From the IMG/VR virus record IMGVR_UViG_2711768005_000013: a stretch of DNA of 44,601 nt; one strand, 5' to 3'. The stretch comes from a virus. Lineage: Duplodnaviria; Heunggongvirae; Uroviricota; Caudoviricetes. Of this stretch, positions 26,447 to 43,049 are shown piece by piece. Position numbers and translations under genes: made by a program. The notes beneath the pieces are model-generated. The model searched no databases. It was not told where the DNA came from and saw only the letters and a list, made by a program, of their open reading frames with translations. The stretch's first letter is position 1; every line of letters starts with the position of its first letter.

Positions 26447-26976
26447 ACAGCGAATCAGATCAAATAAAACGCACATTTGTTAACATTTACACAAAGTCTG
26501 CGTGGGATATTCTGAAAGAATATCCATAATGTGGAGAGAATCTATTGAAGTGCATGGTGCCGGGTGCCTCCCGGTGAACAAAATGTTCGTGATACCTGTC
26601 GGCGACAGAAAAGGTTAATGGTATCACCCCACCGCACAGGGGGATTCACCATGCAGGAGTTTTCTTAGCAAACTCACTGCGCGCCCGGCAACTCCCAACC
26701 ACATAAAATGCGGAGTTTGTGGCATTTATGCATATAACTCGCAGGAATTATCTTAAAAAACTGATGTCGATCCGGATTAAAAAGAAGCAGGTCATCATCA
26801 GATGACTGGAAAAAAGGAAAACAAAAAATACTCATCATACAGTTTTGATTGCAGGGATGAGCCTGCTATGCACAATATGCAGAATATAAGCAAGATAAAA
26901 ATATGCAGGCATATTATTTCGGATCTTGTTATTAACACAACCTTTTTAATAATCATTTGGCATACAATAAACCAGC

Positions 26977-27431: not shown

Positions 27432-27974
27432 TCAAGCCATTTTCTCAGCAAATGATTCACGCATGGGAATATATAGGGCATACTCAGCAACAGCTAACCA
27501 ATTAGCAATCCGTTTTTCGCATGTGCTAAAACACCACTCTGGGTGTGCATCATTTAGCAATTCAGCCATTTTGCGCTTAGTCATCCCCCGCCCTTCATAG
27601 CGTTGCCGGAGAATGCAAATCAATCCTGGATGCTCTGCCAGCACCTCACTTATGACTCGATCAATACATAACGCCTCTGCATCAGTACAATGCGCCAGCC
27701 AGCTCTTTTGCTTGCCGTTGATCATCTCTCGCAAAAACGCTTCCAGCTCAGCTTTCTCTATTCCCGCTTTTTTCATTCTGCGCAGGGCTTCATTAATGGC
27801 TGTTTTCGTCAGTTTTTTGGATGCCAACAACTGATTGAACATATTCCCTGACCTGCCACCGCCAATATACGACCAGCGCCCCCACATACGTAGTTTTCCC
27901 TGAATCCAGACACTTTCCAGCGTGGTGAGGCGAAGGTGTTCTCCGCTTTTTCCTGTATTCGTTGGGTAAATCAT
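27432..27974 (-). CDS. Q-like late antiterminator
   Basis: 180 aa in the Q position (between nin-type genes and the lysis cassette) with LRMWGRWSYIGGG segment resembling Q-family proteins. Confidence 0.55.
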   Translation of the reverse strand: MIYPTNTGKSGEHLRLTTLESVWIQGKLRMWGRWSYIGGGRSGNMFNQLLASKKLTKTAINEALRRMKKAGIEKAELEAFLREMINGKQKSWLAHCTDAEALCIDRVISEVLAEHPGLICILRQRYEGRGMTKRKMAELLNDAHPEWCFSTCEKRIANWLAVAEYALYIPMRESFAEKMA

Positions 27975-28261: not shown

Positions 28262-28860
28262 TACGCAAACTCCAGTAGTTGTGCGGCCACATTTTCAACT
28301 TCCTCCTGAGAGGAGAATTTACGGAACAGAATCCAGTTCCACAGCACATTCAGTACAGATTTATAAACCTGCTGAAACTCGACTTCGTCCATATTCGCAA
28401 AAGCGATGGATTTTGCCCGACGCCCACGGCTACCGTCCGGATAAATATGCTCGGTGTAAAATCCGGCCTGAATGGTTACCCACTCGCGGAAAGCCTCAAA
28501 CGACTTTAGCAACGCCGTATCCCGGGTTCTACGAGTCGCAACGGTGTTAAGGTATTGCTCTGCGGCATCACTCAGGGCTGGCGTGTGTTCCCGACCAACT
28601 GATTCGCACAGGTAATCAACGAAACCAGACAGCAGTTCTCGTTCGCGAGGCGTGATCGCCCCACCGACCGGAGTCCAGTAATCGAATCCCAGTTGCAGGA
28701 GTTTGAAAAAACGCTTGTGGAATGCGTAGTTACGCACACGCTTAAAGTCTGCGTGTATCCACTCACCTATTTTGATTTGATGCAGAAAATCGCAACTCTC
28801 CGGCGTCGCCGGGAGAAGTAAACCAGAAGAGGTTTGTTTGACCAGTTGTATATGCGCCAT
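28261..28860 (-). CDS. DUF1367 / YbcN-like protein
   Basis: 199 aa starting MAHIQLVKQTSSGLLLPATPE with FEAFREWVTIQAGFY segment; nin-region position. Confidence 0.6.
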   Translation of the reverse strand: MAHIQLVKQTSSGLLLPATPESCDFLHQIKIGEWIHADFKRVRNYAFHKRFFKLLQLGFDYWTPVGGAITPRERELLSGFVDYLCESVGREHTPALSDAAEQYLNTVATRRTRDTALLKSFEAFREWVTIQAGFYTEHIYPDGSRGRRAKSIAFANMDEVEFQQVYKSVLNVLWNWILFRKFSSQEEVENVAAQLLEFA

Positions 28861-29140
28861 TTCTCAATCTCTCGATGGCGCAGCGCAGCAGATGCCAGTT
28901 GTTCAGGCTGACGAATAAAGTATAAATAAACTGGCTATGGTGTAAAGCCCCACATAGCATGAACAAACACTACATATCAAATAGCTGGTACAAGGATAGA
29001 AATACGACACTTATTATTAAAAACGATTAGATAAATTACATTTTAATGTTATGCAAAAGTTCTTTTTTATCATAACATTTCAATAAAAGCATTACAGATG
29101 CAATCATCCCGTCATCATCAATTATTTAAGGTGGTTAAAC

Positions 29141-29227
29141 ATGGAAAATAACAAGTTCGCACATCTCGCTCCTTTTTTATCCGTAATCCTTTTCGCTTGT
29201 TGTTTTATATGGGCATTATTTTTATAA
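29141..29227 (+). CDS. Candidate small hydrophobic membrane peptide (28 aa), not in the supplied ORF track
   Basis: AAGGTGG SD 6 nt upstream of ATG; translates MENNKFAHLAPFLSVILFACCFIWALFL; lies in an 800-bp AT-rich stretch with no other credible ORF. Confidence 0.4.
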   Translation: MENNKFAHLAPFLSVILFACCFIWALFL

Positions 29228-29673
29228 AGTAGCCACATGATAAGTTGCTGGAATCATATTTCCCACTCAAGTCATTAACATTTGATAAGATATATCTAAA
29301 AGGACGCCTTTACATTATTTATGCGTATATAATTTATTTATATACACAGTAAAGGTATCCTGGGAAAATATTTATCGTTAAAAAATACATCATAAATAAT
29401 TAAGCTGAAATTTCAGAACACAACTAATACACACAATAAGGTTCAGTAACAGTAATCTATGTGGACTACATCGAGATTTTTTGATTAAACTTTAATAACT
29501 TATTCCTAACACACAGAATGCATAAACTAAAAGTAAAACAAATAGTTATACGAAAAACAACCATATTTATTCTATCTTCTCCTCTAATCAACATATCAAT
29601 TATGTGTTTCATAACAGCTTGACATAACCCTCCAAAAGATGCATTTTTAATGCATGTTTTGGAGGAGGTGGTT

Positions 29674-30012
29674 ATGACACACAAGAGAATTCCTAAAGAT
29701 TGGGTAATCAAACGCTCAACTCCGTTCTTCACAAAAGAGAACGTACCTTCAGCGTTATTAACACATCATAATACAGCAGCAGGTGTTTTTGGGCAGTTGT
29801 GCGTAATGGAAGGCACTGTAACATATTATGGTTTTACTGATGAGAATGCTACTGAACCGGAGATAAAAGTAGTCATTAATGCTGGCGCTTTTGCAACAAG
29901 CCCACCACAATACTGGCACCGTGTTGAACTAAGCGATGATGCTCAGTTTAATATTAACTTTTGGGTCGCTCCAGACTTTTCGGGCGAAAAAGTCTATAGC
30001 ACCAAAAAATAG
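29674..30012 (+). CDS. DUF1971 (TehB N-terminal-like) domain protein
   Basis: GGAGGAGG SD before ATG at 29674 (ORF-track start 29650 is upstream); motifs HHNTAAGVFGQL...PQYWHRVELSDD match the DUF1971 pattern HNTK.G.WG.L....P..WHRVE.LSDD. Confidence 0.6.
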   Translation: MTHKRIPKDWVIKRSTPFFTKENVPSALLTHHNTAAGVFGQLCVMEGTVTYYGFTDENATEPEIKVVINAGAFATSPPQYWHRVELSDDAQFNINFWVAPDFSGEKVYSTKK

Positions 30013-30041
30013 ATGATCATATTAAAAATGCTTTAACAGTC

Positions 30042-30078
30042 AGACCCGGCAGGGCTATCCCCGACGGGTCTCATTTTT
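30042..30078 (+). terminator. Intrinsic terminator downstream of the DUF1971 gene
   Basis: AGACCCG...CGGGTCT stem followed by CATTTTT, 30 nt after the stop codon. Confidence 0.45.
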
Positions 30079-30632
30079 GTAAATATATTGGTTCTACATT
30101 GACAGGAGACTTCAACCATAAGAAGTAATCTGAATACTTGAGCAATAAATTTACTTAAGATTAATGAGCGCACCTTGCCGGACAAAGATAAACCAAGGTA
30201 ACACCTTTTTTCTAGCCAGTATGTAATCAATCAGAAAGCCGCTCCATAAGAACAACAGCAAGACAATAAATTGCCATTACAGCCGCAATAGCCAGCGCAC
30301 ATTTGAGAACCAGCACGACAACCCCCTGTATTAGACGCACACCAGTCCTGATAAATATGAGGCTGTCTCGTCAGTGATTCAATACAACTATTGGGTATAG
30401 TTTCTGTGATTTTATTCTGTAGAAATGGAACACAACAACCAGTCACCACCAGCACTTCCTTAAATGCTCTAAGTCAGAAACAAGCCAACATTTTAGTCCG
30501 CTTTGAGCGATCTGCAGACATTGCTAGCAGCCTTCTGTGTGAATTCTCAGGGAGCAGGTCGGCATAGCATCACGTTGAGGCTCTTACCCTACTTGTTCAC
30601 ACCAACCCTAACTCCACAGACTGATTCATAAA

Positions 30633-31634
30633 TTAGTAATCTGCGTGTTTCGCACTTTTCAGAAATGCTTTCATATTTTCATTAGGTCGCTCAATTTCGA
30701 AGTTACTTCCATATAACTCTTGTAATTTTGGCCATAACTTACTTAATAACCCTCTCCTGCGATAAAATGGATGTATCCAAACGGTAGATAGGTACGGAGA
30801 ATTTGCATTTGAATTGTTTATTGTGACCAGCCCAACTAAACATTGTCGATAACCACTATTATCCATTGATTGTATTTCTTCGACGAATGGATACGCGATT
30901 ACATCAGTCCAACCATGATCGGTTGTATCCCATTGCATTCCGTCATGACATTCCTTCGACTGATAGCGGCGTAAAGCTACACACGCGAGCTTTTGCCAAT
31001 CTGGAGAATTAATTGTGATCTCTTCATCGTATGACGCGCCTATTGGAGCGGGTATTGGTCTGATTAATCCAGCATGGCATTCATCATAGAACTTCATGTT
31101 TCCCTCAGAAACGTTGTGTACGTTGGGTTGCTCCATGTGTGCGCCATTCAAAAATAGCTCTGATAGTAGTGTATCTACACTGTAATCTTTATTGATTATT
31201 GTCGGCTTAGAGTTTTTCTTATTAAGGCCGCGAGTAACGATTTTTTGATCAATGTTAACAACATGGAATAATCCGTCGGGGAGGCTAGCGAACCACGATG
31301 GGGCATCGGACCAGAATAGCATGCCTTTTGTACTTCTTAAGAGTTTAATTAAGTTAATACAAGCTTCTTCACTAGTCTTGCCGTTGATGCGAAGTATGTT
31401 AGGACTAAAGTAATATTCATCCATATCAGGGAATGCAGCTTCGCAAAACTCCTGTACATAATTTAGCACCTGGATTCTACAGAGATCATCATAGCTGGTA
31501 ATAACTAAGGGGGTATCTTCATTACTATTATGATTATCAATAATGCAATCTATAGCGAGACTTACTGCTTTGCGTATCACTTCAGTTGAATCTAACGACT
31601 CTAAAAATTTTGTCTTTCGTGTGCGAATATCCAT
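30633..31634 (-). CDS. Uncharacterised protein with C-terminal GNAT-like acetyltransferase motif
   Basis: 333 aa; C-terminal VWIHPFYRRRGLLSKLW...NENMKAFLKS resembles GNAT motif A; N-terminal about 220 aa unrecognised; 15 bp downstream of the preceding ORF. Confidence 0.45.
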   Translation of the reverse strand: MDIRTRKTKFLESLDSTEVIRKAVSLAIDCIIDNHNSNEDTPLVITSYDDLCRIQVLNYVQEFCEAAFPDMDEYYFSPNILRINGKTSEEACINLIKLLRSTKGMLFWSDAPSWFASLPDGLFHVVNIDQKIVTRGLNKKNSKPTIINKDYSVDTLLSELFLNGAHMEQPNVHNVSEGNMKFYDECHAGLIRPIPAPIGASYDEEITINSPDWQKLACVALRRYQSKECHDGMQWDTTDHGWTDVIAYPFVEEIQSMDNSGYRQCLVGLVTINNSNANSPYLSTVWIHPFYRRRGLLSKLWPKLQELYGSNFEIERPNENMKAFLKSAKHADY

Positions 31635-31649
31635 GTATGACCTGCGCTA

Positions 31650-32672
31650 TTAAAATTCATGAATGAACGGTTTGTCATCTGGTTGCAAAATGGTGGTTTT
31701 ATTCGTTGCTACATTTAAACTGTTGTAGAGCATAATTGCCAGGTTCGATGCATTTTCAATCAGCGTTTCAAGATCCTGGTCTGTAATCACTACGAGGTTC
31801 CCTTCTTTATCCTTTCCACCACGATGCACTAAGTGATTTCGATTGAGGGTTGCCAATTCAATAGCTTCTATCGGACAGTCTTTTTGTACTTTTATATCGA
31901 ATGTAGCTTCATAGCGGTCGATTACCTTTTTAGTGCTATGCCAGCTTGCACTGATCAAGTGTTCCTTGATTGACCTGATTAGCTCTCCCCTAATTTTCTC
32001 GATGGGTTCACCCTTGAAAGGCAACGCAGCAATATCTTTGCTTACTTTAAATTCAGTCTTACCTTTTTCTATACAATTGGCTATGTAGACATCATCTTTC
32101 TCTATAGAATTAATGAATAGCTCAACATAAAGCGTTTCCAAAGCTGTAATAACATTCGTGTAGAGCAAACTAAGCAAGTGGTTTTTTTGCTGTTGTTCAG
32201 TTTTATCTTTTGCAAGTTTTTTTATTTTATCGATATTATCAATGAATTTTAAATACGGATTACCGGAAGACGTTACAGCGTCGTAGATATCATCATCGTA
32301 CCAATCATCTATATTATTTGAGTTTCCAGACCAGTCAAAACATTGTGTTTGTAATTCATCTACTAATTCCTCAATATACTCAGATTTAACATATTGACCG
32401 AAGATGGATTGTAGTTCTTCGCTCGCATCATACGGCCCGCCATATATGTAAGCATAGCCACCTTCTCTACTTTCATACGGACAAGCATTTGCCGGATCTT
32501 CAAAGTTTTCAAAGAACCAGTTTTTCATTACTTCGAGTTGATCTTTTTTGCTTATGTATTTTAAAGATTTTAGTGGAACTTTCTTTCCATTAACCTCGAA
32601 AACAATTTTCACGATGTAACGCTCCCTTGTATCAATTGCGCAACTATTATACCACAGCGAAATACAGGGCAT
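31650..32672 (-). CDS. Uncharacterised protein with C-terminal HEPN-type Rx4H motif
   Basis: Start taken at ATG 32670-32672 with AAGGAGG SD 6 nt upstream (ORF-track GTG start at 32741 less likely); RNHLVH at 31824-31841; rest of protein unrecognised. Confidence 0.45.
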   Translation of the reverse strand: MPCISLWYNSCAIDTRERYIVKIVFEVNGKKVPLKSLKYISKKDQLEVMKNWFFENFEDPANACPYESREGGYAYIYGGPYDASEELQSIFGQYVKSEYIEELVDELQTQCFDWSGNSNNIDDWYDDDIYDAVTSSGNPYLKFIDNIDKIKKLAKDKTEQQQKNHLLSLLYTNVITALETLYVELFINSIEKDDVYIANCIEKGKTEFKVSKDIAALPFKGEPIEKIRGELIRSIKEHLISASWHSTKKVIDRYEATFDIKVQKDCPIEAIELATLNRNHLVHRGGKDKEGNLVVITDQDLETLIENASNLAIMLYNSLNVATNKTTILQPDDKPFIHEF

Positions 32673-32810
32673 AACCTGCCTCCTTAAACTAACATACCAT
32701 GAGCCAGCAATGTCCGCTATTGGCACAAAGCGGACAACCACGCTAGCTCTCCCCTGTGCCAGAAAAATGTCAATTTACATATGAACTAATGCTCTTTGAT
32801 CTAGTAACGT

Positions 32811-42860: not shown

Positions 42861-43049
42861 ATGTATAAAATTACCGCCACTATTGAAAAGGAAGGTGGCA
42901 CTCCTACTAACTGGACAAGATATTCAAAATCTAAACTAACGAAATCAGAATGCGAAAAAATGCTCTCAGGTAAAAAAGAAGCAGGCGTTTCCAGAGAGCA
43001 GAAAGTAAAACTGATAAATTTTAATTGCGAGAAACTTCAGTCCTCGTGA
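42861..43049 (+). CDS. ydaC: YdaC-like small protein
   Basis: GGAGG SD before ATG 42861 (MYKITATIEKEGG...); alternative in-frame ATG at 42849. Confidence 0.5.
   Translation: MYKITATIEKEGGTPTNWTRYSKSKLTKSECEKMLSGKKEAGVSREQKVKLINFNCEKLQSS

Follow-up and report, generated by a model that had tools for sequence, protein, structure and literature searches.

Two chromosomal genes encoding small DUF1971 proteins, STM1808 of Salmonella and yeaR of Escherichia coli, are the closest described counterparts of the element considered here. The yeaR gene (operon yeaR-yoaG) is induced by nitrate and nitric oxide (NO) and regulated by NsrR, a repressor recognising an 11-1-11 inverted repeat, a site of which is present at yeaR (PMC5320621). 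A secondary source lists STM1808 under the words "putative cytoplasmic protein; NsrR regulon" and gives it a role in virulence (PMC7527575). The third relevant group is formed by lambdoid morons (lambda bor/lom, Gifsy-2 sodCI, hokD), i.e. autonomous promoter-gene-terminator units inserted between phage operons. The STM1808 product itself is reportedly a zinc metalloprotein, both the binding of zinc and the resistance to NO depending on H32 and H82. Here we analyse a plus-strand DUF1971 gene with its expression signals, found within a 44,601-nucleotide stretch of viral DNA (IMG/VR record IMGVR_UViG_2711768005_000013), which is called "the window" throughout and represents as a whole a Rac-like lambdoid prophage of E. 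coli.

This locus is probably a prophage moron that encodes an STM1808-type DUF1971 protein and has its promoter controlled by the host NO sensor NsrR. This reading is carried by what was observed in silico, namely the family and orthology of the protein, the operator and its conservation, the geometry of the promoter, the terminator, the boundaries of the cargo slot and the purifying selection acting on the gene. The DUF1971/YeaR/STM1808 family, NsrR operators and phage morons were already known, and it is their combination for which no description was found: the literature searched describes neither a prophage gene under NsrR control nor a prophage-borne STM1808 orthologue with an NsrR operator in Rac-like E. 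coli prophages, and in preprints on cold plasma and on the lac operon yeaR was the sole relevant mention. The elements of the cassette and the slot that it occupies are as follows:

29619-29624, plus strand: −35 hexamer TTGACA (6/6 match), read from the sequence
29636-29658, plus strand: predicted NsrR operator, 11-1-11 inverted repeat AAGATGCATTT-T-TAATGCATGTT, from a weight matrix and conservation
29642-29647, plus strand: candidate −10 hexamer CATTTT, placed by geometry with a 17-nt spacer from the −35 hexamer, inside the operator
29661-29668, plus strand: Shine-Dalgarno (SD) sequence GGAGGAGG, read from the sequence, 5 nt before the ATG
29674-30012, plus strand: DUF1971 coding sequence, 339 bp, 112 amino acids, ATG at 29674 and TAG at 30010-30012
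30042-30078, plus strand: intrinsic terminator, interrupted GC-rich hairpin at 30042-30071 and T-run at 30074-30078
29229-30211, no strand: slot for variable cargo (moron) genes, bordered by the DUF1367 nin-like gene on one side and by replication-side genes on the other

The DUF1971 gene and its chromosomal relatives

A preliminary description of this DNA, made from its letters, had pointed to a 112-residue plus-strand open reading frame (ORF) amid minus-strand genes, preceded by a strong SD sequence and lying in an AT-rich context, and in these three points it was right. In the identical prophage of E. coli strain LD39-1 no other annotated gene in the region between tail and replication genes is on the plus strand. 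LD39-1 shares a 901-bp stretch identical to the window, and the surrounding prophage, integrated beside ttcA, contains, among other genes and in this order, tfaR, trkG, the lysis genes, DUF1133, DUF1364, DUF1367, ydaF, sieB, kilR, recET, ralR, xisR and intR. RalA, the Rac antitoxin small RNA (sRNA) of the RalR toxin, was registered with Rfam near recT of the window (42867-43045, minus strand, 225 bits). The GC content is only 26–30% at 28950-29700, compared with 48–52% in nin-like neighbour genes and 41% in the DUF1971 gene itself. An Rfam search of 28800-30700 gave nothing relevant, just a chance match to mir-616 (E 0.12), and thus no known sRNA or riboswitch was found in the AT-rich leader. 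In RefSeq the same 339-bp coding sequence is named either "DUF1971 domain-containing protein" or "TehB family protein". A longer, 120-residue frame opened by the in-frame ATG at 29650 was considered and rejected: its start lies inside the operator and lacks an SD sequence, and all orthologues start at the MSH/MTH position.

Membership of the product in the DUF1971 family, earlier proposed from its signature, was confirmed by formal profile search. The Pfam profile PF09313 was matched with 92 bits (cut-off 23.1, E 2.3e-26), residues 14-94 covering positions 1-80 of its 80. The closest solved structure is PDB 3dl3 (E 3.5e-59, 201 bits, ~80% identity over 111 amino acids), a stand-alone protein of 119 residues deposited as "Tellurite resistance protein B". 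A database search placed the protein in a tight orthologue group (73–82% identity, 99–100% coverage) with members in Salmonella enterica, Klebsiella, Raoultella, Citrobacter, Kluyvera, Leclercia, Vibrio, Aliivibrio, Photobacterium and Shewanella. In the alignment of 17 diverse sequences residues H31, H32, H82, E85 and C43 are invariant, and the residue numbers H32 and H82 reported for STM1808 coincide with two of these histidines. Nonsynonymous divergence (dN) of the prophage copy from chromosomal orthologues is 0.11–0.15 at saturated synonymous divergence (dS), which indicates purifying selection on the coding sequence, and its GC content in third codon positions (GC3) is 34%, versus 56–67% in enterobacterial orthologues.

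In Salmonella the orthologue occurs species-wide under the annotation "cytoplasmic protein", in the gene order fadR-nhaB-dsbB-DUF1971. We take this gene beside dsbB to be STM1808 (LT2 gene numbering), so that the prophage gene would be an STM1808 orthologue coding for a putative small cupin-like metalloprotein. The two proteins are 79% identical over their full length (112 residues in the prophage and 113 in Salmonella), H32 and H82 are present in both, and both genes are directly preceded by a strong predicted NsrR operator that overlaps the predicted promoter (in Salmonella with 23.6 bits at L081 and 20.7 bits at L032 in the set of compared loci, cited here by their L numbers). They differ in that STM1808 is a core chromosomal gene 3′ of dsbB, whereas the prophage copy is mobile lambdoid cargo; the distance from the operator to the ATG is 27 nt in Salmonella versus 15 nt in the prophage, and GC3 is 56% versus 34%. 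In the neighbour-joining tree they are also grouped separately: the prophage copy is a long-branch sister not of Salmonella but of the Kluyvera/Leclercia/Enterobacter clade, which likewise has short operator-to-ATG spacing.

YeaR is similar to the prophage protein in being a single-domain DUF1971 protein of comparable size, but the relationship is no closer than that of distant paralogues (E 1.6e-24 and 89 bits with PDB 3bb6, versus 3.5e-59 and 201 bits with 3dl3). The prophage gene has no yoaG partner, as there is no ORF between its stop codon and the terminator, and the operator of yeaR is weaker on the same matrix (22.5 versus 26.9 bits). Orthology to YeaR was rejected on account of this paralogue-level match and the missing downstream yoaG.

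In TehB the first ~100 residues make up a DUF1971 domain to which the prophage protein is homologous, and the similarity to it seen in the preliminary description is real: the N-terminal domain of true TehB (PDB 3m70) was matched with E 5.4e-11. The activity of TehB resides in its SAM (S-adenosylmethionine)-dependent methyltransferase domain. Since the prophage protein, with its 112 residues, is devoid of this domain and reaches with the NCBIfam TehB profile only 49.1 bits (E 4e-13, positions 11-106 of 289) instead of the required 303, its identity with TehB was rejected, and the tellurite framing built on the similarity is not supported. The label "TehB family / tellurite resistance" is misleading and would be corrected by the STM1808-type assignment.

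The predicted NsrR operator and the promoter

Two ATGCAT palindromes upstream of the gene had been noticed earlier as a possible regulator site, although at 29650..29666, which is 11 nt off. The hexamers are actually at 29639-29644 and 29650-29655, spanning 29639-29655, and both are inside the predicted NsrR operator, which is what the suspected regulator site appears to be. For its evaluation we used a symmetrised weight matrix built from 26 distinct NsrR sites of strain CFT073 (Mehta et al. 2015, Table 4, PMC5320621). On this matrix the published sites score 11–30 bits and the operator 26.9 bits, so that only ytfE (30.3), identical to it at 20 of 23 positions, outranks it, while hcp (24.2), yeaR (22.5) and hmp (19.5) remain behind. 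The runner-up in the whole window has 12.5 bits, and none of 300 random windows generated by a first-order Markov model reached the operator score (maximum 22.4 bits). The bare pair ATGCAT-N5-ATGCAT with one mismatch allowed is not very improbable alone, being present in 35 of 100 shuffles; unlike this pair, the full 23-bp operator is highly non-random. The list of NsrR sites predicted for CFT073, the strain used for chromatin immunoprecipitation with sequencing (ChIP-seq), contains no such sequence (PMC5320621, Table 4). The matrix scan and the motif search revealed a single copy of the operator in the prophage, and this speaks against its being a site for a repressor of the phage. Sites for NarL and FNR were sought by eye only, and no convincing ones were seen.

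The operator is located between TTGACA and the SD sequence, where it covers both candidate −10 hexamers. The order of elements in the prophage promoter (TTGACA, a gap of 11 nt, the operator, with CATTTT at the −10 position) is typical for the chromosomal relatives as well: in 48 of 55 orthologous promoters a −35-like hexamer (TTTACA, TTGACG, TTGCCT or TTGACA) is 11–12 nt 5′ of the operator, the positions 7-12 of which read TATTTT, TATATT or CATATT and provide a −10 element at 17–18-nt spacing. Based on this conserved geometry one can assume that bound NsrR would occlude the core promoter. A simple promoter/terminator scanner found neither this promoter nor the plus-strand terminator of the gene because the −10 element with three matches of six and the interrupted stem are outside its rules; the promoter was resolved by comparative geometry and the terminator by folding.

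A phylogenetic footprint was obtained from orthologous loci of 80 species, in which 250 bp upstream of each gene were scanned. In 54 of the 80 species the orthologue is preceded, at 15–43 nt from the ATG, by a site scoring 18 bits or more (median ~28). All sampled genera of Enterobacteriaceae belong to this set (distance 15–27 nt), together with two Photobacterium species, and elsewhere in the ~8 kb of the loci sites of at least 15 bits were registered in only three cases out of 80. A separate observation concerns L066, L069 and L076 (Neptunomonas, Parendozoicomonas), where no NsrR-like site stands directly 5′ of the DUF1971 gene and a site of 22–24 bits is present elsewhere within the 8-kb locus. 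In Oceanospirillales, judging from these sequences, the gene may belong to a larger NsrR-controlled operon or neighbourhood.

In some chromosomal orthologues, i.e. those of Kluyvera, Leclercia, Pantoea, Buttiauxella, Silvania, Pseudescherichia and two Photobacterium species, a Fur-box-like sequence (e.g. GATAATGAGATTTATTATC; 14–17 of 19 positions of the consensus) adjoins the −35 hexamer from its 5′ side. It was found ~60–85 nt upstream of the ATG in L003-L024 and also in L055 and L075, in total in 20 of 80 loci against one of 80 control stretches, which suggests, at the level of sequence, dual control by Fur and NsrR in those genera. In the prophage copy the Fur box is absent (best match 11/19), and dual Fur control was rejected for it.

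Nine E. coli copies were sampled for allelic variation, and on a uniform-background matrix their operators have 27.8, 26.6, 25.7, 20.7 and 17.7 bits; the change from AAGATGCATTTTTAATGCATGTT to AACACGCATTTATAATGCATGTT lowers the score from 27.8 to 20.7. Compared with L002 (a chromosome of S. flexneri carrying the gene) and L085 (E. coli E308), the window has an identical coding sequence and flanks diverged by at most 1%, yet there are 5–6 substitutions in the 55 bp of 29619-29673, the segment covering the −35 hexamer, the operator and the SD sequence. This cluster could be a conversion patch, a trace of regulatory tuning or a sign of relaxed constraint.

Several circumstances speak against NsrR control of an STM1808-type moron as described above. 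Control of this particular locus by NsrR is predicted from the sequence. The candidate −10 hexamer agrees with TATAAT at only three positions of six, the 800-bp flank is very AT-rich and may be a target for silencing by H-NS, and the operator alleles vary, the apparently commonest of them, AACACGCATTTATAATGCATGTT, having 20.7 bits and one as little as 17.7. Most orthologues of Vibrionaceae have no NsrR site, and control by NsrR is thus not a general property of the family. Finally, the tag STM1808 was assigned from LT2 gene numbering and a secondary description.

Taken together, such doubts could mean that the palindrome does not function as a site for NsrR and is a relic or a target of another regulator, and that the gene is constitutive or silenced (e.g. 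by H-NS) and contributes little. The weak −10 element, the 26–30% GC of the surrounding DNA and the low scores of some alleles (17.7–20.7 bits) are all compatible with that, and so would be the substitutions between the −35 hexamer and the SD sequence if they reflect relaxed constraint. We nevertheless regard it as unlikely. Even the weakest of the sampled alleles, with its 17.7 bits, still falls among the scores of validated sites, e.g. hmp (19.5), and the window allele is better than every published site except ytfE. Across 54 species the operator is fixed in position while the surrounding sequence is not conserved, the coding sequence is under purifying selection, and the single motif copy argues against a repressor of the phage as the other regulator.

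The terminator, the cargo slot and the neighbouring genes

A hairpin with a T-run had been proposed as the terminator of the gene, and folding supports it. The structure begins 29 nt 3′ of the stop codon; AGACCCG at 30042-30048 pairs with CGGGTCT at 30065-30071, an inner GGG/CCC stem is enclosed, and C-A-TTTTT follows. Its folding energy is −17.2 kcal/mol (z = −2.2; 8 of 200 shuffles were equally stable). The terminator is kept in E. coli alleles, and in L087 the inner stem carries a compensatory replacement of GGG/CCC by GAG/CTC. The 5′ side of the hairpin is not A-rich, so that the minus-strand RNA would have no U-run and the terminator should not stop the phage early-right transcription.

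The boundaries and contents of the slot were examined by comparing the window with L082, L088 and L084. In BLAST alignment with the hokD-carrying prophage L082 homology stops at 29228 and resumes at 30212, and thus the cargo slot has 983 bp. It may contain DUF1971 alone, hokD alone (L082, L089) or DUF1971 together with a Hok/Gef gene, the last two being side by side in other prophages and in the isolated phage vB_EcoS-666R9. Judged from these comparisons, the slot is a recombination hotspot for small cargo. Nucleotide homology of ~73% to chromosomal orthologues extends from 29633-29636, where the operator has its edge, up to the stop codon; the −35 hexamer, AT-rich leader and terminator cannot be aligned to them. 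Since the homology begins at the operator edge, the gene was transferred along with its operator.

The cassette thus has its own promoter, operator, SD sequence and terminator, lies on the opposite strand in the nin region, shows presence/absence polymorphism among related prophages and differs in composition (26–41% GC versus ~50% in the flanking genes). All this agrees with the initial suggestion of a self-contained acquired moron. As in other lambdoid morons, the gene appears, by analogy, to be expressed from a repressed prophage for the benefit of the host. What distinguishes it from them is the predicted high-affinity operator of a host stress sensor, NsrR, which was inherited with the gene from a chromosomal ancestor. 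The gene was found in 458 of 5426 complete E. coli genomes, nearly always in the chromosome, and in only three of 50,697 phage records; isolated Rac-like phages, e.g. vB_EcoS-666R9, have it in the same position. In addition, in L085 and in L082 (strain 30EVA2) a prophage stump abuts host genes (for an MFS transporter, gamma-glutamylcyclotransferase and LysR), the DUF1971 or hokD cassette being the last part of it to be kept. Such a survival of the cargo gene after the phage is, as a sequence observation, consistent with domestication.

The position of the cassette also permits a reading in which the phage, and not the host, profits from the gene: it could act during lytic development, in the interplay with superinfection or defence, or as an antisense brake on transcription of the early-right region, its role in stress being incidental. 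The early-right (PR-type) transcript has to cross 29660-30078 on its way to the Q-like gene (27432-27974) and is convergent with the cassette; moreover, the slot otherwise holds hokD, and the adjoining one holds variable uncharacterised genes. We consider this reading improbable. The orthologues are ordinary chromosomal genes of many genera having no phage context, carriage among phage records is as rare as stated above, and the terminator acting on the plus strand only suggests an insulated, non-interfering cassette. PADLOC found no match for the DUF1971 protein, and the defence-system version was dropped for this reason. A more specific proposal, to which we attach the same low probability, is that the cassette is a brake gated by NsrR: NO-induced convergent transcription or antisense RNA would dampen Q and make lytic development sensitive to NO, and the cluster of substitutions over the promoter, operator and SD sequence would then reflect tuning of the brake. 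A TehB-like determinant detoxifying tellurite or a related oxyanion is very doubtful, because the weak similarity to the N-terminal domain of TehB and the names given to some RefSeq records and to PDB 3dl3 are outweighed by the absence of the methyltransferase domain, the short and low-scoring profile match and a conserved regulatory signal that is the operator of an NO sensor and nothing tied to tellurite.

Some neighbouring stretches deserve mention in their own right. The unannotated 299 bp at 30212-30510 are ~90% conserved in many E. coli genomes, and in other prophages their equivalent adjoins hokD upstream on the minus strand. Within them there are two terminator-like hairpins and a hydrophobic 37-residue ORF (MRLIQGVVVLVLKCALAIAAVMAIYCLAVVLMERLSD; 30227-30340), all on the minus strand, and Rfam gave no match; a small membrane peptide or something toxin-like may be encoded here. 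Beside the DUF1971 slot there is a block of two cargo genes, 30633-31634 and 31650-32741, both on the minus strand. The 333-residue protein has a weak C-terminal match to GNAT (E 9e-4) and the 363-residue protein a weak match to a HEPN/RES N-terminal domain (E 2e-4); neither was matched by PADLOC. In the otherwise identical prophage of LD39-1 three different hypothetical genes occupy the position of this block, which looks like a second variable slot, possibly with an uncharacterised defence or abortive-infection pair. One more Rfam match, to the sRNA STnc100 (86.6 bits), was registered upstream of the lysis region (26498-26684, minus strand).

Proposed action of the cassette and its meaning for E. 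coli

If the promoter of this STM1808-type moron is indeed controlled by NsrR, the following sequence of events can be envisaged. In a lysogen growing without NO the repressor carrying its [Fe-S] cluster would occupy the operator at 29636-29658 and block RNA polymerase. Nitrosylation of the cluster by NO would make NsrR leave the DNA, and the DUF1971 gene would then be transcribed independently of phage regulators, antisense to the early-right operon, the prophage being otherwise silent. The transcript would end at the terminator that is active on the plus strand only, leaving phage transcription towards Q unblocked. The product would be a small cupin-like metalloprotein with the conserved pair H32/H82, and by orthology with STM1808 it should raise tolerance to nitrosative stress. 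NsrR binding in vivo, induction by NO, zinc binding and the protective phenotype are what we infer from the data presented above. E. coli would in this way gain a member of the NsrR regulon that is chromosomal in Salmonella, Klebsiella, Citrobacter and Kluyvera.

To our knowledge, K-12 is devoid of this gene. If the proposed control is real, this gene, which in Salmonella contributes to virulence and to resistance to nitrosative stress and is otherwise missing from the E. coli chromosome, is present as a mobile copy inducible by NO in ~8% of the complete genomes of E. coli, in some Shigella and in free Rac-like phages. Because the operator travelled with the gene, such cargo would arrive already wired to a stress regulon of its host. 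The regulon of NsrR in E. coli would then have a strain-dependent extension, invisible in studies of K-12 and CFT073, and operator alleles linked to coding sequences that are identical or differ by at most three substitutions would provide a natural series for NsrR affinity and regulatory evolution.

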